The notes below the pieces were generated by a model. That model was not told where the DNA came from and did no database searches. It saw only the letters and a list, made by a program, of their open reading frames with translations. Position numbers and translations under genes: made by a program. From the NCBI GenBank assembly GCA_965645245.1, contig OZ287069.1:2728001-2792000 (forward strand): a stretch of DNA of 64,000 bases. The letters run 5' to 3'. This DNA comes from Massalongia carnosa. Lineage: Eukaryota. The first letter of the stretch is position 1. The number at the start of each line of letters is the position of its first letter. Below are positions 736 to 32,139 of this stretch, piece after piece.

Positions 736-2625
736 TCAGTATGATGCCATACGCCTTGACGGTAGTCGCCTCGAGTCCAGATGCCGATCAATTGAAATAT
801 CCATTCCCATCATTAAAGAGGAGCTGCACTGCCTGTTAGGAGCTGTGGGGCTGTCATCCATAGGCTGATTATGCTGCCCAAATGCAAATGTTTGCGCTCG
901 GCTTAGCTTCGCGCGTTGTTGCTTGATCCTTCCTAGACCACGCTCGCAAGCATTGGCGTGTTCCTTTGCAGCCATGGCGACGTAATCCTGCGGGAAGCAG
1001 CGAAATCTATGATGCATGAAGAAACCATTGTAGCCGCCGTCGAGAATGTATACTTCGGGGTAAGTTAACGACGGATAACGATGAGCATTTGCAGCACGAT
1101 CCTTGTGACGGACAAATTTTGCCCTGCATAGATTGTTAGCAAGGTCCAAATGAACAAGATTTGAACCATTACATGATCGGGGCTCGATGAGCCGAATACT
1201 CGCAATGAAATATGAGCAAGGTCTTCTCAGCTTGTGGGGTCTCGAACAGCTGGTTGGCTAATTCGTCTTTATTATTGACATTGATAGCACCTTCAATATG
1301 ACCTCCTTTATACTCGTATTCAAAACGGCAATCTACTATGATTGAATGCTCAAAGCATTGATCATACTTACCATCTAGTACCTCGATTATGGTGTCCTTC
1401 GTGATTCGCGGTAAGCTCTCGTCCTCGGAGATGAAATGTGGAAGTTGTAATCGAGGTGCATCATCAGTGTCCATAATGGAATCCAGCACGCTCGTAGAGC
1501 TAATATTAACTTTCTCCTGCTTCAAAAAATCACCTGGGTTCTCAAACATGCTGAGCGAGCGTCGAAACTGTTTCCGGGGTCTCTGACTTGGCATAGACGG
1601 CTTTCTAACGTGTCCAACAATTGGGGATCCGCTGCTGCGGTGATGTCCGTTTATGCCGGAGAATGGCTGTTTCATCCTCGGGGGTCCCATGGTTAACGGT
1701 AATGATGAATTGGCGTTCTCCTGCGGCGGTGAAGAGGTAAAGCATTCGTCAGAAGACATCAAGGAAGGAGTGGGTAATGAAGGTCCATTCCCAAATTTAA
1801 AAGAGGGCAAAACGTTTTCTGCTCGTACATTCCTTAGAGGCGCTGATGCTGTTGAGCTTACCCTATTCCGTGAAAATGAGGGTCTCACTAGGGTTGATCG
1901 CTTGCGCCTAGAAGGAGAATTAACTTGCGTTCATGGCCCAAGCTTTCGTTCGCTTACTCAAAAAAAATGGGATGCCTGCCAGCTTCTTTTGAGATTTCCT
2001 GGTTAACGTCTTGAAGGGATGAAACAAGATCCTCTATCGGCGTTTCTTCCGGTGATAGAGGCACCAATTGAATCTGGGCCACGACGAATGGTGCTTTATG
2101 TGGCAAAGGGGATATATCCATCAAGTCGTTACCAGGCCCTGGAGAGGATGACGGAATTGGGGGTGTAGTCACGCATTCTATCCCATTGTAAGCCGTTGTC
2201 TCCAAGGTGGGAGTGCATGTGACTGGCTTACCTCGACCGGTGATTGTCCCAAAAAGATTTTGTGAGAAAAGGGATCTTCGGGGTGTAGGAAGTCCAGGGC
2301 TAGGATTATCAAAGTTAATAAATGCAAGTACCATCCAATGTAGCTGAGAGACATACCTCTGATCAATGTGAAAATTTTGGGACAAGTCTGCTGCCAGGGT
2401 GGTTGTAGGTGACGATCCTCTTACAGGCTTCAAGCTAAAGTAGTCTAATGGTGCTTTGCTCATGCTGAGATCCTTGAAGTTGAAGCTGCTTGGCCCAAAG
2501 CTGTTTTTTTCCCTACACCGTCCTCCATAATTGGGATATGAAATGGGTATATCGTTTCGGCAGCCCCATTGACCAAAAGGAAGTGAAGCAGGCTGCATAG
2601 CAGCCAATGGCGAGGACCGTTCCAT
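736..2625 (-). CDS. cdc25: M-phase inducer phosphatase (Cdc25/Mih1/NimT), 5 exons: 2625-2357, 2299-2232, 2177-1958, 1907-1173, 1123-736
   Basis: Rhodanese-type Cdc25 domain with [20 protein letters not shown] and catalytic [10 protein letters not shown] (HCx5R), then [15 protein letters not shown] introns join the ORF-track pieces in frame. Confidence 0.95.
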
Positions 2626-5039
2626 TCTTTATTGATCAAGGAGAATACACTTTCGTTGTAGCCGTATGAGACACTATGTCATCCGAGGGACCACTACGAC
2701 CGAAAAGAGCAATTGGTAATGGTCAAAGTTGGGTTTGAAGTCGTCCAAGATCTAGCGAGGGGCTGCAGGTTAATCCTCGTAAGGGATGCAGATTCTGGAT
2801 AAGTAATTGACCGTGATCTTTTAAGCTGCAATACCTAAATCATGATGAAGTGGAAGAATGAGGAATTGAAGGTGCTGGATAATGTAATTTATCCTTAGGG
2901 AAAGGGTTGGGCGAAGTCGACATTCAACAAATGTGACTTGTCCTACTTTAGACGACCTGAGCCGACGGGGGAGGAAAGACCGTCGAGAATGTGAAGATGT
3001 CGAGAAGGATAGAGAGGAAGGTGAAGGTGAAGGTGAAAGTGATGAAGAAGTAGAAAGCACTAAGCTCGTGAGTGAAGAAAGACGGCTTGAAGCTTGAAAA
3101 ACGCCCTTGGTAGTCGTCTAAGCAACGTTGGTGGGATGCATAAGTGTGGATATTCAATCGGTACCCAGGGATTTTACCGCTTACAGCAGCTGAGCAGCAG
3201 CCAGCAACCAACATCCAGCAAATTAATGATGAACGGCTACCTATCCCATCTCGGCTCCACGTTGTTTTCATTATGCAGGAACTCATTGTCACTGTCTTCA
3301 TCTACGAATGACACCGCAAAGACGCAGCCCACACCGCGCCGTTATGATGTAATTGTGTTTAACCCTTTCCAGGCCAACAATGCTGGAGATATGAGACAGC
3401 GGGGGAACTCGATAAGAACATCAGGTTTTCCCCCAAGAGCGTGCCAGCACATATGGCGGCTTTCTAGCGGCTAGAGAGCTCCTTTGGGAAGGCTGATACA
3501 CCCGGATCAGGTTTTCTACGCAGTGATTGGGAGATGAGGTGGGATAAGGTGCTTCGTTTAGGGCTGTCCTATCCGGCAGAGGTCGGCGTAGCGATGGAGA
3601 TTGGCCTGGGCCATCCCTCCTCTAATATCAAACATGCGGCACGCAAGCCCATGCTGTCTGATTGGCCCGTTTGTAAGTACACGCCCTTTTGTGCCATCTG
3701 ATCTATGCTTGCATCTCATCGTTCAATCCTTGCTGTTTTGCTAGTTGGTCTTCGAGTCCTTAGCCTCGGAGGGGGGGAACGCGAGCTGGAAGAACTCCAG
3801 CTGAAGTCAAAGAAACGATCCGTTTGGGGATGTGAAAATGCACCGAGTTCTCTCGAAAAAGATAATTTTCGAGTATGTTTCCCATGCTCTGAGAAAGGAT
3901 GAATGCCCATGGTCATGGCCCTCCTCTTCAAGTGTGGACGGAGCTGCACGAGCGTATTGATGTGGGTGATGCTGCACAGCTAACCCAGAATCCACCCTCA
4001 AATTAAGCATCGTCATACGGTCACGCAATCTACCTTGCACTCCGCCTGTTGACACCAGAACTGGAATAGTCCCACAGAAGCAATACCGTCCTTTGACAAC
4101 CCCTCCATCCATTCCTAGACCGTAAACACTTCGGTTGCTGGGTTACATACGCGCCAATTCGGTCCTCGGCATTCCCATTTGACTGTGAAAGCGCCGGCCA
4201 AGATCAGGCATCTCCGAAGGATGCTTAGCCGGTAGCTTGTACCCTGTTACATACATCTGCGCTGTGTTTTTGGCCTTGCATCCCGTGCTCAGCTTACTCA
4301 GGACCGTATTCGGTGTTATCGTAGAGAATGCTTAAGACTTGAGGCTCAAAGCGATATTCATGCTTGTTGCTCAATATATCAAAGAAGAGAATCATGAATA
4401 CAGAGTAGTTCCGTTACTCAATTAACCTAAAGATAACCCATCAGTAGCAATGATAGCAATGGTGATACCAGAAGTCATTGTTGTGCCAAAAGCCGCAGGT
4501 AAACAAAACATATGCCCGGACGCGTAGAAAGCGCGCGTGTCATGTGACAGTTTACCCCCGATCCGGAGCAATTAGGAACCGCGGGTGGATTAGTGTGTTT
4601 TAGATCTTCCGAGTTCTCCCGGCCGCGCGGGTGGCTGCGATCCGATTTTCTTGAACTTTTCAACGGTGCCGATGCTTGTGAATGAGGTAATGCTACAGAG
4701 TACTTTCTTTGGAATCAAGTCACAAAACCAACAGATGAAGTGGAAGGGACCAAGGAATAACTAAACGCGGCGGTGGAGTCAGTACTCTAGGAAAAGCTTC
4801 CAGGAACATGAGTTACCTGACGAACGATAGCTATTAGAAAAAGGGTCCAGGATTATAACTTAGAGGCTTATGAAAGTTATGGCCACAAGCATAGTACCCT
4901 GTACGGAGTAGGTAGTCTGCTATGTGAATTATGCTACCCCGTACAATGACACAAGCAGCTGTAGAATGGAATGCACGATGAATAATTTAAACAAAGCCGC
5001 TACAACTTCCCATCACCATATACCCAATACCTACTGCAG

Positions 5040-5594
5040 CTACTCTGAAAGAAAGCCCTGCCTCTGCCAGTATTGCTTCTCTTCCTCTTCCTCCAAACCT
5101 GGATGATAAGGGCAGACCCACACGGGGGGTCCGTTCACGCCTCTTGTATTAGTCCACCCAACTTCCGCCAAGGTTTTCTGCAAATTATCGTCGCCCAGCT
5201 TGAAGGTCTGGACCTCTAACCATGTACGGCCATCAACCAGCAACTTACACTCTGTAATACCCCTAGCTCCGCTTCCACCCATTTCTCGGATGAGATCTTC
5301 CACTTTCTTGCTGGTGGCAGCCACGCAGGTTGTATATACTATAGCCTCATCACGGTCCCGGCCCGTAAATCTGTCTCGGTGGGGTCTGACACCATTCCCT
5401 ATGAATTTGATAGTGACATATTTGATTTCTGGTGGTGATGGATGGAAAATTTGCGTAAAGAGCGCTCGGATAGGGGATGTGGGAAGGAGTATGAAGGGAG
5501 GAAGTAGTGGAACCCCATGATTTGGAGGTAACCCATCGGGTGTTAGAAAATGAAGCCGCCCATCTTGATCAAAGTATGTTGGAGGAGCCGACAT
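5040..5594 (-). CDS. Hypothetical fungal protein (~184 aa from ATG at 5594)
   Basis: Uninterrupted ORF starting MSAPPTYFDQ with a globular-looking C-terminal half (GITECKLLVDGRTW...TLAEVGWTNTRG...PPVWV). Function not recognised. Confidence 0.55.
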   Translation of the reverse strand: MSAPPTYFDQDGRLHFLTPDGLPPNHGVPLLPPFILLPTSPIRALFTQIFHPSPPEIKYVTIKFIGNGVRPHRDRFTGRDRDEAIVYTTCVAATSKKVEDLIREMGGSGARGITECKLLVDGRTWLEVQTFKLGDDNLQKTLAEVGWTNTRGVNGPPVWVCPYHPGLEEEEEKQYWQRQGFLSE

Positions 5595-6477
5595 TGTGAA
5601 TGTAGTTCCTAGATCGAGGATAGGCAGGATTTGACGTAAGATACTTCGCGGAGTCGCACCTGCGAAAACGCAAGCAGCAGAATGCTCGATCTGGGAATGT
5701 GATGGAGAATTTTCTCTTTGGTGCACTTGAGAGTGGATAAATTACTTGAGAGAAAGAACGGAATTTGAAGGGAGAATCACTCCTTTTATTTGTAAACATC
5801 CAAAATAATAATAATCGAACACTCATCCTGTACAGGTAAACCTCCGAGTCAAGAGTACGAATCATCAAATTAATATAAGCAAGGTGGCTATATAGAAGCA
5901 ATGAATCATCAGTGTAGGATCTGGAATGACTGCCTGTCCGTATTTGACCAAGAAATTTTATGAATACTCACAATGCGACAACAAAAATAAATACATCAAA
6001 TGATGTTCCAGCTAGAAAAGTAAACGGAAATCTCATTGACACCAATACGCAAATCCTCCATTCTAACAAAGAAAAAGAAAGAATTTATCAATCGGCCAAG
6101 ATATTCTATTCTATTAGGCCTAAAGCTTACGACATATCAAAGCCAAGCAATATTCTAGTGGCGTTTCTTCTGTCAGTCGGCAGCAAGTACAATAACGCTG
6201 TATTCACTTCTGTTTGAGCACAACAAGACTGCCCTCGTCAAGGGTTTAATTATAGCAGCCTTTCATTCGTCGACAAGCGTATATCTTGACATCACGGATC
6301 TAAAGGCTGTTGCAGCCCCAGTTGCTGGTGCTACTCCGGGGGTATGCGGTAGGCAGATACATCAACAGCTCAGACCTGTCTCCGTTTCTCCTTTGGCTAG
6401 ATGTCAATGATGGTAGGTCCTCGCCACCAATTAGCTGAGAGTTCTGCCCCCTTCGAAACCTTCGGTAAGAGCGAAAG

Positions 6478-10751: not shown

Positions 10752-12156
10752 GATGATGTATTCATACTCCGATATGACACCGGCCGTAGGCCGGCCTATG
10801 CGGGCAAAGCTATCTAAGTTATGTTACATGGAAAACCTTTCACAGGTGTAAAAACCATATCCCTTGATACCCGTCCGATGTGACTACGGGTCGACGTCGG
10901 GCGGGAGACGCAGTGCAAAAGACGTGTGGGAACTGTAATGCCTTGTGAAAAGAGAAGAAAGAAAGAAAGGTTCAACTATTGTTGATTTTACAATAATGTT
11001 GATGCTAGTGAGAATTGATTCAATAAGCCTGTTTTCATTAGCCAAGCAGTTAGTATCTTCAGAGTTTTTGATGATTTGGTCAGCTGCTGATAGTCGCTCG
11101 TGCCGGCGGCGCGAAACATCTGTTCTCTATTGTCAATAAGTCTGCAGAACATGATTACATGTTCTGGAGTTTGTCTGTGCCAGCCACATGAGCAGGCCGG
11201 TGAGGTGACGGAGGGCACCCGTTGCTTGTAGAGGAAGTCAGCTAACCCGATCTTGCCAGTGCGGATTTGTGTTGTTAGAGCGCTTTCTGCCTTTTTTAGC
11301 TGCGTGTGTATTTTCAGCCGTTTTTTGCTCAGTGGGACTGATTGTGCTATGGAGGGTTCGATGACGCGATTTTGATATGCGCACCACGAGTCGTTCCAGA
11401 CCTTCATTTGTCGTGCTTTGATTGTTTGCATCTGCTTGTGTCGGGCCGTTGCCGCAACGGTAGCTTCGCGGTGCCACGCCAGGTAGACTTCGAACCATGG
11501 TGGGTGTGCCTTTGGTGGTTGAACTATTTTTGAGTCGATCAGTAGGCTTTTGGCCCAGATGTGTTTCAGCTCTCCCGGGGTGGGCTTTTGAAGTCGTTTG
11601 CGACCTGCCTTGCCTCGAAGTTTGTCAGCTATTTTGTTGCATGCGGAGGAGATGATCTTCAATTGGCCTCCGGCTCGGAGCTGGTGCCTTGCCTGTGCTT
11701 GTAGCATGTCGAGATGCGTGTCTATGGGCGCTATGAAGGTCTCTGCTTCTAGTACTGAGATGGGAGTGGCTTTAAAGGCACCGGCTATGGTGCGAAGGCA
11801 ATTGTTTTGCATGACGGAGAGCTTGCTCGTTGACGTTTTTGACTTTTTGACTTCTTTGGGCATGTGCCATACGGTTGACCCATATGTCATGGCCGGACGC
11901 ACCACGGCACTGTAAACTTGCCTTGCCTTGGCGAAGGTGGCACCCCAGGTTGATGTGGAAATTTTTGTCAATGCCATGGATTGTTTGACCATTTTCTCTT
12001 GCGTTTTGCGAACGTGCGGTCCCCATTTCAATTTGGTGTCGATTTGTAGGCCCAATACTCTGATGTCCGTTTTTGGTTCAATTTCGGTGCTAGCAATATT
12101 GATGGATGCAGTCATGTTGAATCTTTTGGGATTTCTGGACAAGCGTATGAGTTGAT
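10752..12156 (-). mobile_element. 5'-truncated Tad1-like non-LTR retrotransposon (LINE): ORF2 C-terminus (10988-12156) plus 3' UTR
   Basis: ORF homologous to the C-terminus of the LINE at 13870-17331 (IRVLGLQIDTKLKW, VVRPAMTYGS, CSCG..HVIMFC zinc knuckle). 9-bp TSD GTTTACAAT at 10743-10751 and 12157-12165; short CATC-type tail. Confidence 0.93.
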
Positions 12157-12549
12157 GTTTACAATAGTAGGCCTAAGCAAATTCTAAAGCTTGGAAAGAC
12201 CACACTGCCCCATTGAACCAAAAAGCCAGATTCCTCCTCGACCGGGAGTTAAGTAACATTGATACTAACCTTTCTCCAACCGAACGAAAAGTGCTATCTA
12301 TCCTTACTTTCCTTTAGAAATGATTGCTGCTACAAGATACGTGATCGACCCTGGCGATACCTTCAAAAACAAGATACAACGGAATTGACAATGGATGACC
12401 TTTGAGAACCTTCATGCCGAAACTAACGATCAGAATCCTTTACCGCACACCGCCGACCAGCAATGCCAGCCAGCAGCCAGCATCCAGGAATAGAACCTGA
12501 GGCCCGGTAAGCATCACCAAACATGCGGCAACCAAAAACCAAACCATTG

Positions 12550-12678
12550 CCTCAGTACCTCAGACGTGCGTGGCTCTATGAGCCGGCTAAGCCCCTCCGG
12601 GTTAGCGGCCCTTTAGCTGACTACGCATGCTACGGGCGGCACGTCTGAGCGCAAAACTCTGTATTTTTGTCAGATCCG
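12550..12678 (+). repeat. Left terminal inverted repeat of the helicase element
   Basis: CCTCAGTACCTCAGACGTGCGTGG...GGGTTAGCG (12550-12607) is the exact reverse complement of 19000-19057, and 12639-12659 is the exact reverse complement of 18952-18972. Confidence 0.92.
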
Positions 12679-13108
12679 GCTTATTTTGGTGGCGCGCTCA
12701 TACTAATTTCTTGCTTAATCTCAAAAATCATCAAGAATCAAGTTGACGGCGGAATCAACAACGCGCAACGACATTTCATAAATTATGTAGTAATAGAAAT
12801 GATGCTTTGATATACATTCTATCGATTAATCAATATTTTAATTACATATCGATGCAGAATTGAATCGCAATATCGATCTCGCGACGAGGACTCGACTTTG
12901 ACTCGAAATCTCGACACTACCACAGCAGACTCAACGGGTCACTAGCTCCAGTTTTTCATTGTCGGCGCTTCTGATCATTAATCTGATCCTCCGAGCGTTG
13001 TTTTCGAAAGCCTAAAATCGTTGAATGTGATGAACCTGCTTGATGTGCGTTTTACGGGCTAAGAATCCAACTCGCGAATCGTCGAATATCGCTCGCAAAC
13101 ACATCTAA

Positions 13109-16100
13109 ATGGACGATCCTATAGCGTCGATAGCTCGCGAGCAGGTGACGACCGTGATTTTAAGTAAATTCGGCTTTTCGCCAAAGAAAGAGCAAGTTGA
13201 TGCTATCATGACTTTGGCACACGATCAAAAGGATCTGATATTTATCGCCAAGACTGACTTTGGAAAGAGTATTATCTTTCAAGCTATGCCGTTAATGTTC
13301 TCTTGTATTAAGATCGCTTTAATTATCATGCCTCTCAAGACCTTAGAAGCTCAACAGTGCAAGAAATTGAGCGTTACCGAGGGATGCAAGCATTTCGTGT
13401 TGGACGGTGATAGTAATAATTCTTCTAATTTAAAGTTAATTCGTGAAAACAATTATACGCATGGTGTGTATTCAAATTATCATTGAGATAAATATAAAAA
13501 CTTACTCGTTAATATGAATAGTTTTTACTAGCCCAGAGATAGCGACGTCAAAGTTGTTTAATCAGGAGGTTCTGAGGCATCCAAGTTTCTTCTTGAATTT
13601 ATGTCTTTTAGCTCTTGATGAGATACACCTTGTATCCGAATGGCGAGATTTCCGGCCCGAATAATTCAATCTCGGTGTGCTTCGTACACGATTACCAGAC
13701 GGTATTCCTTTTCTGGGTGCGTCTGCAACGCTGGATCCAAAAACCCTAGAGAGCGTTAAAGATCGCTGTGACTTTGATAACGAAAGTACTGTTATTCAAA
13801 CAGTGCTTGATCGTCCAGAGATATACATACAGATAAGCAGTTTACAGAGGCCTATGAACAGCATGATCGTCAGAAACGACCGAGAACCATGGCGGAGCAC
13901 GCACGCCCCGACCACTCTTAGCTCTCACCAAAGCGGATTCCACCTTCTATATCGCCCCGGCGGCGACACACGCGTATGCTTCTACGTCAACGAGAAAATC
14001 GACCCGGAAAGCTGGGAAGTAGAATTCCCAACCGCAGACCTATGCACGTTGAAATTGAACGTGAGCACCGACGGTGTTACGAGAACGTTGCACATTCATA
14101 ACGTGTATAACCCGTCCCCGTCTTCTTATTCATCCACAGACAGCCCCTCCACGCTCCCGGCTGTTCGTCAGCAACTCGCCGCAGATGCACAGCACGTCCT
14201 CCTCGGCGATTTCAACCTTCACCATCCATTTTGGAACGGAGTCACAAGGCCAACGCAACACGCAGCCGCGGACCAACTACTGGATATAGTAGAAGAATTC
14301 GATCTCTCACTTACACTGCCCAAAGGGACCGTTACATGGGAGGCTCGGAACTCTTTTAGCACCATAGACCTAGTATTTATGTCGGAATTCCTGACGGAAA
14401 GACTAGAACACTGCATGTCGAGACCGGAAATGAACCAATCCTCTGATCACATCCCGATTTCCACCCGCATTCTTCTCGGTAGTGAACAGCTAACGCAAGT
14501 CAAGCGCAGAGCATGGAAACTGCTGAACATGGAGAAACTGAGAGAGGCAGAAAGCAACGCCCCGCCCGTCACCCACCCCCGCTCCGCCGAGGAAATTGAC
14601 CAGTACGCTCAGACAATCCAAGAGTATCTTCAGAAAATCATAGCCGCCTCCGTCCCCTGGGCCAGACCCAGCGAATACGCGAAACCTTTTTGGAACGAAG
14701 AATGCAATCGCGCCATCCGTGAGACTCGCAAATTGCGCCGTTCCTGGTCGTCATCGCGTCACATGGACGACTGGAAAGCGTACATGAAGTCCAACGACAA
14801 GAAGCAAAAGATAATCCGAAAAGCAAAAATGCTCTCATTCCGCAAAGAGATCAGTGCAGTCACCGAGTCGCCGCTGGGCATATGGAAGCTGGCAAGATGG
14901 GCAAAAGATAGAAGCCAGAAGCCCCGCGAGATACCGAAAATGCCGCCACTGAGGCACGGAGGGCAGACGGCGGAGACGTTCGAAGAAAAAGCGGAAATGC
15001 TGAAAGCCAAGTTCTTTCCCCCACCACCGCCGGCGGACCTGAGCGACATACCTGGGTCATTCTACCCCGCTGCCGCGGATTGTCCCATGATGATCACAAA
15101 GAACGAAGTGATCGCAAACATACAATGCCTCAAGTCCGACAAGGCTCCGGGTCCTGACGGGATCACCAACAAAATCCTCAAGGCATGCTCTACAAAGCTA
15201 GCAGAATTGCTAACCCCTTTATTTCAGGCGTGCGTCACGCAAGCGTATCATCCTCGCGAGTTCAAAAGAGCGAACACGATAACGCTCAAAAAACCGGGAA
15301 AGAAAGACAACACCAGCCCAAAGGCATATCGGCCCATAGCTCTCCTGAACACAATGGGTAAAGTTCTAGAAGCGGTCATCGCAAAGAAAATCACCCACAT
15401 AGCGGAACAGCATCGGCTCTTGCCCGACACGCAAATGGGTGCTCGGCGAGGGCGATCCACCGAGTCCGCACTCGAGCTTCTCACAGAACAGGTATACACC
15501 GTATGGGGACAAGGCAACGACAAGGTGGCAACCCTACTCAGCATGGATGTGGCAGGTGCGTTTGACACGGTGTCTCACCGTAGGCTAATACACAATCTAC
15601 GGAAAAGGAAAATTCCGAAATGGATCACAGACTGGACAGCAAGCTTTCTGGAGAATAGGAAAACCACATTAGCAATAAATCGGCGAGCAACCGGGGAGTT
15701 CGCAGTGCGCACGGGCATTCCTCAAGGCTCGCCCATTTCCCCTATTCTGTATCTGTTCTACAACGCGGACCTATTAGAGATATGCCAGAGACCCGGCACG
15801 AACACGAGTGCGCTGGGATTCGTAGACGACGTAAACGTGTTGGCATACGGTAAAAGCACGGAAGAAAATTGCAGAACTCTTGAAAGAATTCACAGGAAAT
15901 GCGAATTGTGGGCGACACGGCATGGCTCCGTATTTGCACCGGATAAATATGAACTCATTCATTTGTCAAGAAATCCAAAGAAATTCAACATGACGGCCAC
16001 TATTCAAATTGAAACCAATCTGATTGAACCAAAAACGGACATAAGAGTACTGGGCCTACAAATCGACACAAAACTAAAATGGGGAGCTCATATACGGAAG

Positions 16101-18766
16101 ACGCAGGAAAAGATGACGTCGCAGTCGCTAGCGCTCACAAAAATCTCGGCATCCACCTGGGGAGCATCCTTCGCAAAGGCCCGGCAGGTCTACACCTCCG
16201 TCGTCCGCCCGGCAATGACATACGGAAGCGCCGTGTGGCACACGCCCAAGGAAATCAAGAAAAACAAGGCCACGATGTCCAAACTCAGTGTCATGCAGAA
16301 CAAATGCCTACGCACTGTGGCAGGAGCGTTTAAAGCAACACCCGTCGAGGTTCTCGAAGCGGAAACTTTCATCGCCCCTATGGAGCTACACTTGGATCAT
16401 CTGCAGATGAAAGCAAGATACCGCCTACGGGCCTCAGGGCAAGCGAAACTGATCACCACTGCCTGCAGCACAATAGCGAACAAGCTACGAGGCAAGGCAG
16501 GACGCAAAAGAATACAACGCCCCACCCTAGGAGATTTAAAACACGAATGGGCCAGCAAGATGCTAAACAACGAAGCCCCAGCCGCAATACCGCCGCCGCC
16601 CCGACCCTGGTCAGGACCCGACCCTGTCCGTCTCGAGAAATACATCACGGCACGCCGAATTATCGGAAAGCACGCAAAGACCATTACAGTACGAATCAAG
16701 GAGCGTTGGGAGACCAGGTGGAAGGCGTATCAGGACCGCGTTCCCTACCCAACAGAGGCACAGCTCGGACCACTCAACAGAACTAGATTGAAGATTCATG
16801 ACAACTTGATGAAGGCGGAAAGCGCGCTAACCACGCAAATCCGCACTGAGAAAATAGGTTTGGCAAACTTCCTGTTCAATCGTCGGGTTCCGGGAGCTAT
16901 GACTCCAGCTTGCTCGTGTGGCTGGCAGAAACAGACTGCCAAACACATCATATTACACTGCAGACTAATCGAAGGCAGATATGAGCTGCTCAGACAATTG
17001 GGCACCCACGACTACCGGACGATTACGCGTTCGTCGAAAATGCTGAAAAAGCTAACTGCATGGATAATAAAAGCAAACTTGTTAACACAGTTCTCACTAG
17101 CATCGCAAATGTTATACGAGATATAACTTCTCATTTTCGTCAAGGATTCTAAAGAAAAACGATCACAGAGAGCAGCCTGTTGCCAGCGAGGCTCCGGAGG
17201 TAGTGCGTAGTCTACGGGGTTTTTATTCCCAAGAAGGGTTTTCCTTGTATGATAAACATAGACAGCCCGCATGGGCCGGCCTTCGGCCGGTGTCATATCG
17301 GAATAAGAATAAATCAATCAATCAATCAATCAACAGCATGATCGATCTTCAACATCTTTTACCAACACGGGCTGAGAGCCCTTTTGATATTCCGAAAACG
17401 ATTATCTTCATGAATTCAATTTCATCTATCAAAAAGGCGTGTGCGCTAATGAAAGTATGGATGAATCAATTGTCCTATCCAATTGAGGCCGCTAGTTGGA
17501 TCGCGCCTTTCTTTTCCGACATGGCCACCCAAGACAAAGAAAGGATTGCGGCTCGCTTCGAAATGCCCTCGGATCAATGTAAATTTCCTCGAATCCTGAT
17601 CGCAACGGATGCATACGGGCTTGGTATTGATAATGCAGACGTTATGAGAGTTACGCAATGGTTGCTACCCTCGTCAATGGCGAAGCTATATCAACGTTTA
17701 GGTCGTGCTATGCGTTGCGGTCGAGGACAGGCGCATTTTACTCTTTTGCATCCTTCTTGGTGCATAGGTCCAAGAAGCGGATCAAAAATGGACGAACAGG
17801 ACGGATCTGATGACGCGGGAATCGAGATTGAATCCAAGGCCAGTAAACGCTGCATCAATCAAAAGGATGCTGATCGGCGACGAGATATGCCACCGGGTCT
17901 TTAGGAGATAATCAATGTGCCTTCAGATGATTGCGTTCGAGGTATTGGCTTGAATTTCTTCAATGATAAAGTGTATCCAACGTCGGCCTATGTTAAGCCG
18001 CAACCTTGCTGTTCAATTTGCGATCCAAGTTTTCAGACATCAACATCCGCCAATGAGATGTTAAATAGAACGGCCGAGCGTGACTCGTCTAGGCGGCCTT
18101 GGTTCACCCTTAAACTTCGAGAATGGAGGGAGGCCAAGGCGCAGGAAAAGTTCCCAAATTCACATATGCGATACTTCCCATCATTGATAATGCCCGATGA
18201 GGTACTGAATTCTTTGACCACTTGGGCGGATCAGATTGTGGACGAGCCCACCATGCGGCGATGGATTGGTAACACATGGGCTGGTATTAGGGCCTACGGC
18301 ACCGAGCTTTTAGAAATTTTAAAGCGGGGTCAAGCGATGAGATTATGTAGACGAGGGAGACATGTTCGAGGAATGGAAACGACACAACGACATAAAGCGA
18401 AAACGATTACCCAGCCTAACATGCAACTCCGCCAGTATTGAATTTGAGGAACGGAGGAAAAACTGGATGATCAAACAAGGATGTATGTCGAGAAAGGTTT
18501 TTAATAAGCGAAATGCGGTCAAGAAGAAAGTCTCGAAGGAAAGCGAGAGCACGGAGCCATCGGGCGAGAATCCTGCGCCTGATCACAATATCTCCGATGC
18601 GGCGCTCGTTGTTGACAATGTTGATGCTCTTAAATCATCGATGAAGGCATCAAAGACCAAAAAAGCGCCTCCAGATCCTATGGAAGCGTTGTCGCTGAAT
18701 GTACCCATGGCCCTTCCTCCGACACGATCTAGACAAGAAAGAAAGTGCCCCGTCCGCTACCTCTGA
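13109..18766 (+). pseudogene. RecQ-family SF2 helicase pseudogene interrupted by a LINE (intron 13464-13521)
   Basis: Motifs AKTDFGKS (Walker A with G>D), IMPLKTL, FTSPE, LDEIH..EWRDFRP, SATL, DRPEI | LINE | KTIIF, ILIATDAYGLGID, QRLGRAMR, C..R...CCSICDP and an HRDC-like tail. Stops at 13662-13664 and 17902-17904; frameshift near 18340. Confidence 0.9.
13870..17331 (+). mobile_element. Tad1-like LINE, 5'-truncated at the start of ORF2 (APE endonuclease + reverse transcriptase + CCHC), ORF open to 17126
   Basis: EPW, HNVYNP, GDFNLHHPFW, STIDLVF, SDHIPI (APE); KAPGPDG, YRPIALLN, DVAGAFD, GIPQGSPISP, FVDD (RT); CSCG..H...HC. (AATC)5 tail at 17312-17331; 13-bp TSD AACAGCATGATCG at 13857-13869 and 17332-17344. 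Confidence 0.96.
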
Positions 18767-18932
18767 CACTGTAAAGCCGCGCGGCGCGGATTTACATGAC
18801 TAGGCTTTTTATAGCCTGACAGTGGTTATAACACATGATTATCCATCTTGAGAGGTGCGTTGTTGGTATAAAATACAGTCTCTGGTAAACTAATACGACC
18901 CTAATCATTGTATTAAATCCAATTTTATTACG

Positions 18933-19057
18933 CGGATTTGGCCGTAATTTTGAGTTTTGCGCTCAGACGTGCTATCGCACTGATGCTAGTCAGCAGCGAC
19001 GCTAACCCGGAGGGGCTTAGCCGGCTCATAGAGCCACGCACGTCTGAGGTACTGAGG
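18933..19057 (-). repeat. Right terminal inverted repeat of the helicase element
   Basis: Reverse complement of 12550-12678, perfect over the outer 58 bp. Confidence 0.92.
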
Positions 19058-30813: not shown

Positions 30814-32139
30814 CACGCGGGTGACAAAATAAATTGCAACGTGTAAGCGAATTTACCCCCCTTTTTTATTCAAATTTTCATCTCATCATCAACCATCATC
30901 TGCATAGCTGATAAAATTCATCTAAATTACATGAGATCAATAACCAGTCATCGCCCCCTTTGCATCTTTCACCTCTTTCAATCTTTTGGGCATGGATAAC
31001 ACCCTTTCATTGATAAATTCCTGACTGACTCGAGCCCATCCCTCCCTAACCAGCTGCTCCAAACTTGCATCGTCCCAATGAGGAAATTTACGAACATGCT
31101 GCTTTGCGGGCTGCCAGCAATTTTCAATGGGAGCTAGATCAGGAGATGAAGAACAATTGAAATAGTGCTCTAAATCGTGATCTAACTTCCACTTTTTGAC
31201 CGCGTTTCGTCTCTTGCCCGTGCCATGACCAGAGTCTCCATCTTCTTCAAGTACGAAGTCATCTCCATGCTCCAACCAGGGCTTGACGACGGGATCAAGA
31301 ATAGCGTCAATATACACCTGATGAGTCATTTTTCCATTGCTATTGCTGGGCACATCGTAGAAGTAGATATCCGACTTGAAATTGTAACCAACTGCTGCCC
31401 AGCAGTGCTTTCTTTTACGATCTTTCTCAGGTGGTGCATCACGATGCTGAATACAATCCCAACGATATCTTGTTCCGGGCTTACGAATGATTCGTAACTG
31501 TCCTTCAGGCCCGTAGCCAAAATGAATCTCATCGCTGAATCGTACGCGATGCCAGTCTTCGGACCGAGGATATTTATTTAACATAACTGTAGCAAATTCT
31601 TCTCTTCTTTCTTCTGATGCCATTGCCAGCCACCCTTTGACACAGGCTAGACATTTGTGATAATTCAAGGCAGCTGTAAGAGTTCTCTTCATTGTACGTC
31701 CCATCACGTCGGCCCCAATCTCCAGTGCTAAAGCATCCCATGTGTAGCGTTTCCTTCCAATTGTAGATCTTGATCCTGCAGAATGTGATCTGCCTCCTTC
31801 AGCTGATCATCACTAATCTTTCGCTTTCGACCCCGAGTCTCAACGAGAGAAGAATTGTGACGTGTGCGAGAAGAAGCTCCGCTTTTGATGATGTTATAGC
31901 CCGCGCGCTCGGCCACGCCAAATTCCTGAAAAATGGCCCGTGGATCGAATGGAATTGCATGTGAGATGAGAAATTTGATAAGCTCCTTGAACTTTGGCCT
32001 TTGTGGGAGTATCATAATGAGGCTTTTTGGGTCGAGACATTGATGATGAGATAAAAAGTTGAAAAAAAGGAGGGTGTTTTGATGGGGCATTCAGGGGTAA
32101 ATTCGCTTACACGTTGCAATTTATTTTGTCACCCGCGTG
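30814..32139 (-). mobile_element. Tc1/IS630-type DNA transposon, 1326 bp, with 46-bp TIRs and a 5-bp flanking direct repeat GTATG
   Basis: Perfect TIRs at 30814-30859 and 32094-32139; GTATG at 30809-30813 and 32140-32144. Confidence 0.95.
30937..32040 (-). pseudogene. DDE (Tc1-like, DD38E spacing) transposase with two frameshifts
   Basis: ATG at 32040 (MSRPKKPHYDTPTKAKVQGA), +1 frameshift near 31974, GRKRKIS, -1 frameshift near 31750, then WHRVRFSDE, HCWAAVG, LEEDGDSGH and SPDLAPIENCW. Confidence 0.9.

Follow-up and report, generated by a model that had tools for sequence, protein, structure and literature searches.

The DNA considered here is a stretch of 64,000 nucleotides (nt) from Massalongia carnosa (NCBI GenBank assembly GCA_965645245.1, contig OZ287069.1, positions 2,728,001 to 2,792,000 of the forward strand); we call this whole stretch the window, and all element coordinates are window positions. 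Between 12550 and 19057 lies an element bounded by terminal inverted repeats (TIRs), the sole gene of which is an intron-bearing, RecQ-like helicase of superfamily 2 (SF2), interrupted by a nested long interspersed nuclear element (LINE). An earlier interpretation, made from the letters of the window and here called the sequence-only reading, had taken this element to be either a deletion derivative or one half of a bipartite system. From left to right, its features are as follows.

12547 to 12678, plus strand: left TIR, with the family terminus TTGCCTCAGTACCTCAGACG starting at 12547 and an inner inverted GTCTGAG at about +96.
12679 to 13108, plus strand: subterminal non-coding DNA 5' of the helicase start, containing no open reading frame (ORF) with a family match; promoter and 5' untranslated region are presumed to lie here.
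13109 to 13463, plus strand: helicase exon 1, 118 codons plus 1 nt, with motif I reading AKTDFGKS.
13464 to 13521, plus strand: intron of 58 nt, GT..AG, at a position conserved among relatives.
13522 to 13869, plus strand: first part of helicase exon 2, with the end of the DEAD domain, a DEIH box and an in-frame TAA at 13662-13664.
13870 to 17331, plus strand: nested LINE with a single endonuclease and reverse transcriptase ORF, the 13-bp duplication AACAGCATGATCG standing on both sides.
17332 to 18766, plus strand: second part of helicase exon 2, with Helicase_C, a four-cysteine cluster and the C-terminal tail; TAG at 17902-17904, a 4-nt insertion at about 18344 and the stop at 18764-18766.
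18767 to 18932, plus strand: short spacer, at the place where relatives have a convergent DUF6589 gene.
18933 to 19057, minus strand: right TIR; the three bases past 19057 are GGG, the family consensus being CAA.

The arms of the TIR (12550-12612 and 18995-19057) measure 63 nt each and are complementary at 97%. The perfect 58-bp repeat claimed previously is indeed there, with 12550-12607 matching the right arm throughout; the imperfect extension exists as well and reaches about 113 nt at 88.5%, with an additional, separate inverted pair of 40 nt (12639-12678 and 18933-18972) that is 80% complementary. A 47-nt core of the TIR occurs at two places only in the 64 kb, with a match in 0 of 100 shuffles, and a scan of metagenome contigs for this exact 47-nt sequence gave no matches. 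The LINE carries the domains Exo_endo_phos_2 (1.5e-19) and RVT_1 (5.9e-31) in its ORF, has a (TCAA)n tail and is bounded by its target duplication at 13857-13869 and 17332-17344. When it is excised in silico, the helicase frame is regained as PMNSMIDLQHLL, in agreement with homologues, and the element shrinks to about 3.03 kb, as the earlier estimate of about 3.0 kb had it.

Pieces of the window helicase match DEAD (2.7e-05 and 4.8e-05) and Helicase_C (9.3e-12), which together with the 58-nt intron bears out the description of a single intron-bearing helicase gene. The conserved SR..R..P.RY tail at its C-terminus is still complete. Besides the LINE, the gene contains two in-frame stops and the frameshifting 4-nt insertion, and the window copy is therefore dead. 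Neither the TAA and TAG, nor the 4-nt insertion, nor the lack of a clear flanking duplication was mentioned in the sequence-only reading. We considered the change of G to D in motif I as a further inactivating lesion and rejected it, the position being G, S, D or N across 51 relatives.

A search with the C-terminal 368 residues against 1.84 billion representative proteins returned 771 homologues at E values up to 1e-3 and 45 at 1e-30 or below, the top match being 56% identical; the 150 homologues listed range from 66 to 992 amino acids (aa), and those with names are fungal, among them a Peltigera and a Mycena species. Helicase_C was found by Pfam scan in 19/19 relatives and a transposase family in 0/19. 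Exon 2 of a relative at locus L001 (562 aa, intact) matches the PDB chains of WRN, RecQ, RECQ4, RECQ5, RECQ1 and BLM at 1e-22 to 1e-12. The best NCBIfam match of the L001 helicase is recQ_fam (2e-36, 125.7 bits), below the family cut-off of 219.8 bits, and the window piece scores 44.4 bits against the same cut-off. Four cysteines (C200, C225, C226 and C229) are invariant in 17/17 aligned helicases; RecQ_Zn_bind and HRDC give weak matches that are confined to distant relatives. Of the domain labels given earlier, RecQ-like holds, and a zinc-binding cluster and an HRDC-like tail are plausible for this copy.

The setting of this gene became clear from its relatives. Metagenome contigs were scanned with the helicase alignment, which yielded 80 loci, all of them thus chosen by helicase similarity. 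At L030, TIRs of 127 bp that are 99% identical enclose 5.08 kb, in which the helicase lies on one strand and a pair of neighbouring ORFs (364 and 475 aa) runs convergently towards it, the two genes being 17 bp apart; L018 has the same layout. This convergent second gene (about 850 aa) matches Pfam DUF6589 with E values of 8e-74 and 2e-72, and full-length gene models in a fungal metagenome-assembled genome encode 869-988 aa. Downstream DNA of 3 kb or more is available at 28 loci, and in these tblastn found a DUF6589 gene 3' of the helicase in full at 17, in part at 4 and not at all at 7, the last comprising three element derivatives (L002, L035 and L046) and four distant helicases at 24-30% identity; counted over the 24 element-type loci with enough downstream DNA, the gene is full in 17 and partial in 4. 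The elements that are complete with both genes span 5.08-6.19 kb, and their TIRs range from 18 to 127 bp. The position of the intron in the DUF6589 gene varies by clade, the ORF being split after about 364 aa in the group of L030 and after about 290 aa in that of L052, L062 and L065.

DUF6589 is a Pfam family without known function, and its position beside the helicase within the TIRs, together with a D-D-E pattern, hints at a role. In an alignment of 29 rows, D261 (in YDNF) is conserved in 16/16 rows, D421 (in GDxKT) in 14/15 and E647 in 17/17, and on these grounds the protein is probably the DDE transposase of the group. A profile search of the PDB with this alignment gave a chance-level match alone (E 0.33). 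In the Atlas, the protein falls among DUF6589 clusters only, mostly of Basidiomycota, and no named neighbour appears when these are excluded; in the literature, we found no passage connecting DUF6589 with Academ. Searching the window with DUF6589 proteins by tblastn revealed no such gene and no remnant of one anywhere in the 64 kb, in keeping with the earlier claim of a transposase-free element, and at the place of the second gene the window copy has only about 230 bp.

The window element and the two-gene elements share their ends. The common terminus reads TT(A/G)CCTCAG-N-CCTCAGAC, or in fuller form TT(A/G)CCTCAG-N2-4-(C)CTCAG(AC), and is borne at both ends by the window element, by the two-gene elements L054, L061, L062, L063, L064, L065 and L030 and by the short derivative L003; across 10 aligned ends, both window ends included, the terminal columns show no variation. 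The motif CCT[CT]AG-N2-6-CT[CT]AG has 49 matches in 502 kb of loci compared with 4.05 in shuffles, and is placed 150-1500 nt upstream of the helicase in 26/61 eligible loci. Further inward, at 69-96 nt from each end, the window element, L054, L062 and L063 have an inverted GTCTGAG. Since the termini of the window element match those of two-gene elements, it has the same end architecture. Terminus and inner GTCTGAG make up a compact and strongly conserved signature, which could be used for finding and bounding such elements in fungal genomes. At L036 (49-100), two termini stand head to head with 7 bp (GGTTCCA) between them, which may represent abutting insertions or an excision-type junction.

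Target duplications were compared over 10 end pairs, with 75 combinations of offset and length for each, on metagenome contigs that may join the flanks of different copies. At L061, a perfect direct repeat of 8 bp stands right against each terminus (8/9 when read as 9 bp), and at L054 a repeat matches at 8/10. We considered whether the window flanks AAACCATTG and GGGCCACTA could be a mutated 9-bp duplication (4/9 match, all mismatches being transitions), but rejected this because the adjoining TIRs are 97-100% identical.

Closest to the window element stands a sister family represented by L001 to L005. The sequence-only reading had proposed to place the helicase in a phylogeny with AcademH, cellular RecQ and telomere-linked helicases; our quick maximum-likelihood tree covers the helicase relatives (46 rows after removal of 7 duplicates) and clusters the window with L001 and L002 (support of 90 in the Shimodaira-Hasegawa-like approximate likelihood-ratio test), the sister of this group being a clade that bears the second gene (98). 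L002 has its right terminus about 440 bp past the end of the helicase, and no DUF6589 gene was found within the 5.7 kb beyond that terminus. L003 and L004 are 99% identical to L002 and carry a further internal deletion. L002 to L005 all lack the transposase gene, and their flanks differ, which places them at different sites. L001, which is 89% identical to L002, has an intact helicase and, about 100 bp past its stop, a frame of 44 aa on the opposite strand that stays open to the contig edge. Over its whole length, this tail matches the very C-terminal end of the DUF6589 protein P0198 at 63% identity (E 2e-6 in a search of 5.8 billion proteins), and P0198 in turn shares 35% identity with the product of the second gene at L009 (2e-32). 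Since the tail is thus where a DUF6589 gene ends, a two-gene form exists in the sister family, whose transposase-less members are derivatives that have moved; for the same reason we rejected an ancient helicase-only clade made up of the window element, L001 and L002.

Some details of these loci deserve mention in their own right. The right end of L002 (2759-2866) is a perfect 108-nt inverted copy of its left end, and further along (3378-5699, minus strand) a 774-aa ORF for a hAT transposase (Dimer_Tnp_hAT, 3.2e-12) belongs to an unrelated neighbouring transposon. Of this end, L003 (3576-3618) and L004 share only about the last 20 nt, and the right subterminal sequence of L003 is unlike that of L002. 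At position 54 of L003 stands a left terminus, TTACCTCAGTTCCTCAGG, which belongs to another family within the group; the 2.56-kb derivative (1054-3618) follows 1 kb further on, and this arrangement suggests that one element is nested in another.

The stretch is present in five public sequencing runs, and the contigs of four of them (X1, X2, X4 and X5) were compared with the window. Depth in X2 is about 17,000 for helicase unitigs and about 450 for the single-copy flank, and in X1 it is 200-295 and about 28, respectively. As the depth of the helicase far exceeds that of the flank, the source organism has multiple copies of the family, very roughly 10-40. Because each depth adds up overlapping contigs, and because the runs do not agree with one another, depth along the element was not used for the proportions of element types. 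At position 17903, all covering contigs in all four runs (one per run, several in X4) read G, so that the TAG is TGG there, and the 4 nt at 18344 are absent from contigs in all four runs; in X4, such contigs account for about half the depth. Of the three ORF defects of the window copy, two are therefore not shared by most copies, whose frame stays open there. In X2, X4 and X5, contigs part from the window sequence in both directions at 18804 and 18806, with loose ends of 59-232 nt; this junction lies about 40 bp past the helicase stop, where the convergent gene ends in two-gene relatives, and is consistent with a longer variant, carrying both genes, in the same genome.

Two further observations concern the same contigs. 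At position 18840, an 8-nt insertion is found in about half of the summed depth in X1, X2, X4 and X5, which suggests that the right-hand region exists in two or more multi-copy variants. A contig of single-copy depth in X2 and X4 joins 12629, in the inner left TIR, to 18968, in the inner right TIR, and may stem from a short derivative, made up of TIRs only, at another place in the genome.

We believe, with a probability of roughly 0.72, that the locus is a transposase-deleted, non-autonomous derivative of an AcademH-like fungal TIR transposon, mobilized in trans. The complete form of the family would encode a RecQ-like SF2 helicase and, convergent with it, the DUF6589 protein of about 850 aa as its likely DDE transposase. 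In the window copy or its immediate ancestor, an internal deletion that starts about 40 bp past the helicase stop and reaches to within about 250 bp of the right end would have removed the entire second gene and spared both ends and the helicase. Such an element could move only through transposase supplied in trans by a two-gene relative in the same genome, which would recognize the shared termini and the inner inverted GTCTGAG; that the helicase has a role in transposition is something we infer. After insertion, the copy acquired the LINE, the two stops and the frameshift, and its outermost right triplet differs from the family consensus; it is now inert. Of the two possibilities raised by the sequence-only reading, deletion is hence the one we favor, as two-gene relatives share the termini and the sister family has both forms. 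The locus would then probably be a deletion derivative of a rather common kind, as opposed to a novel two-part mobile system, and would matter chiefly for its correct annotation as the dead copy of a helicase-bearing DNA transposon that has lost its transposase.

Several points weigh against this explanation. The window flanks have no clear target-site duplication (best 5/10), and among the 10 end pairs a duplication was seen in just 2, those of the other 7 relatives reaching at most 5/8. That the DUF6589 protein may be a DDE transposase is read only from its conserved residues and its position. In the source genome, a two-gene master with the exact TIRs of the window is one that we infer, and the loose ends at 18804 and 18806 could equally mark an unrelated transposon inserted in some copies. 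For the helicases of L001 and L002, the ratio of nonsynonymous to synonymous substitution rates (dN/dS) comes to 0.29 over 542 codons, with 20 skipped, which shows that the helicase is under selection within the family; since L001 is a two-gene element, this value is uninformative on transposase-less lineages. Finally, if intact helicase-only copies should predominate in the source organism, simple decay of a deletion derivative would be a poor explanation.

This last point leads to an alternative that we consider unlikely, namely a long-lived helicase-only lineage that lost the transposase, kept an intact helicase under selection and spreads as a parasite or helper of two-gene elements, the helicase being retained because it raises the mobilization of the very elements that carry it, for instance through an action in cis on the donor. 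Such a lineage would agree with the multi-copy state of the family in the source organism, where the commonest variant reads through two of the three ORF defects, and with the clean deletion that left the helicase complete, including its C-terminal tail. Copies that lost the transposase and kept the helicase do recur in several families, not only in L002-L005 but also in L035, L046 and, in another family, L028/L029/L032 and L033, where the transposase is truncated. Yet the two-gene member in the sister family leaves no old helicase-only clade, the L002 helicase carries stops, those of L003-L005 are partly lost, other random deletion forms such as L070 and L024 occur too, and the high-depth helicase contigs are assignable neither to helicase-only nor to two-gene copies. 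It is similarly doubtful that the amplified form in the source fungus is a helicase-only element, whose intact, selected RecQ-like helicase prefers its own element and lets it out-compete the two-gene masters on which it depends. If so, it would be the first accessory-enzyme-only DNA transposon lineage, and the family would offer a handle on the function of transposon-encoded RecQ helicases.

The bipartite system put forward in the sequence-only reading, in which helicase-only and transposase-only elements with the same TIRs complement each other in trans and no two-gene master exists, found no support and appears very unlikely. Nothing speaks for it directly; it is permitted by a 64-kb window free of DUF6589 matches and by termini conserved enough for cross-mobilization. 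Two genes per element are the standard of the group, as the counts over the 24 element-type loci show, and the nearest family holds both genes together. A transposase-only element was not seen among the loci, which is weak evidence because all of these were fished out by their helicase and the source genome was not part of the search. That a host RecQ-family gene lies between chance inverted repeats, or was captured by an unrelated TIR element, is contradicted by these results. Among named proteins its closest kin are indeed cellular helicases of the RecQ family, but the source organism has the helicase in multiple copies, its homologues sit within TIR elements with the same termini on many unrelated contigs, and even the L001 protein falls far under the RecQ family cut-off.

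The window holds two other mobile elements of note. Just upstream of the element, 10754-12172 is an inverted, diverged fragment of the family of the nested LINE; its complementarity to the latter amounts to 70-73% across the ORF and 90% across a 3' stretch of 52 nt. At 30814-32139 lies an element of 1.33 kb with perfect TIRs of 46 bp and GTATG at both flanks; its 289-aa ORF on the minus strand matches DDE_3 (4.3e-10), which makes it a Tc1/mariner-type transposon.

Among known helicases and helicase-bearing transposons, several can be set apart from the window family. With cellular RecQ proteins (WRN, RecQ, RECQ1, RECQ4, RECQ5 and BLM) it shares the helicase core and a cysteine cluster at the zinc-binding position, but it is highly diverged, multi-copy, bounded by TIRs and, in relatives, paired with DUF6589; we therefore rejected a cellular RecQ gene on the bit scores (125.7 for L001 and 44.4 for the window piece against 219.8), the multi-copy depth and the TIRs. 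Helitrons encode a Rep/HUH nuclease fused to a Pif1-type helicase of superfamily 1 and have no TIRs. A Helitron was rejected here, the helicase being SF2 and RecQ-like, the TIRs long and no Rep domain having been found. KolobokH elements follow a TTAA rule at their flanks, and TTAA flanks are not present at the window element. A passage in PMC9587614 presents KolobokH as a RecQ helicase-associated lineage of fungal DNA transposons with the helicase encoded downstream of the transposase domain; the relatives described here differ from it in having two separate convergent genes. At the conserved histidines of the DUF6589 alignment, inspection by eye showed no C or D three residues before them, and KolobokH was likewise rejected.

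The closest counterpart is AcademH, a group of transposons reportedly described by Kojima in 2020, in Mob DNA 11:15. According to passages in PMC10045372 and PMC10799480, AcademH elements are fungal, have TIRs and carry a gene with DEAD and Helicase_C domains beside a separate putative DDE transposase. The window element has the SF2 RecQ-like helicase (DEAD and Helicase_C, with RecQ-family best matches in the PDB and NCBIfam for L001) and TIRs, 58 nt perfect and about 113 nt imperfect, whose termini are common to two-gene relatives; in contrast to AcademH, this copy encodes no DDE transposase and has no detectable duplication. The complete relatives, at 5.1-6.2 kb, lie in the same size range as an Academ element of Marasmius (6026 bp, with 9-bp target duplications, in an entry of PMC8290104, Suppl. 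Table S3) and those of bivalves (mean 5565 bp, as given in a passage of PMC10294476), and the direct repeats of 8-10 bp at two relatives (L061 and L054) compare with the 9-10 bp cited for AcademH in a passage of PMC10045372. The termini differ, those of the Marasmius entries reading TAGTCC... and ours TTRCCTCAG..., with one Marasmius terminus beginning TAGTGTCCTCAG. By size, TIRs, the separate helicase gene and the 8-10-bp duplication in two relatives, the label AcademH is a plausible one.

The nearest precedent for the derivative itself comes from Marasmius oreades, where the relevant part of PMC8290104 reports non-autonomous Academ elements that are transposase-less, non-coding and 380-823 bp long and that share their ends with, and depend on, an Academ-type element. 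The window copy resembles them in lacking a transposase, but differs in measuring 3.0 kb and in retaining the whole accessory helicase gene. Non-autonomous Academ derivatives as such have thus already been reported in fungi.

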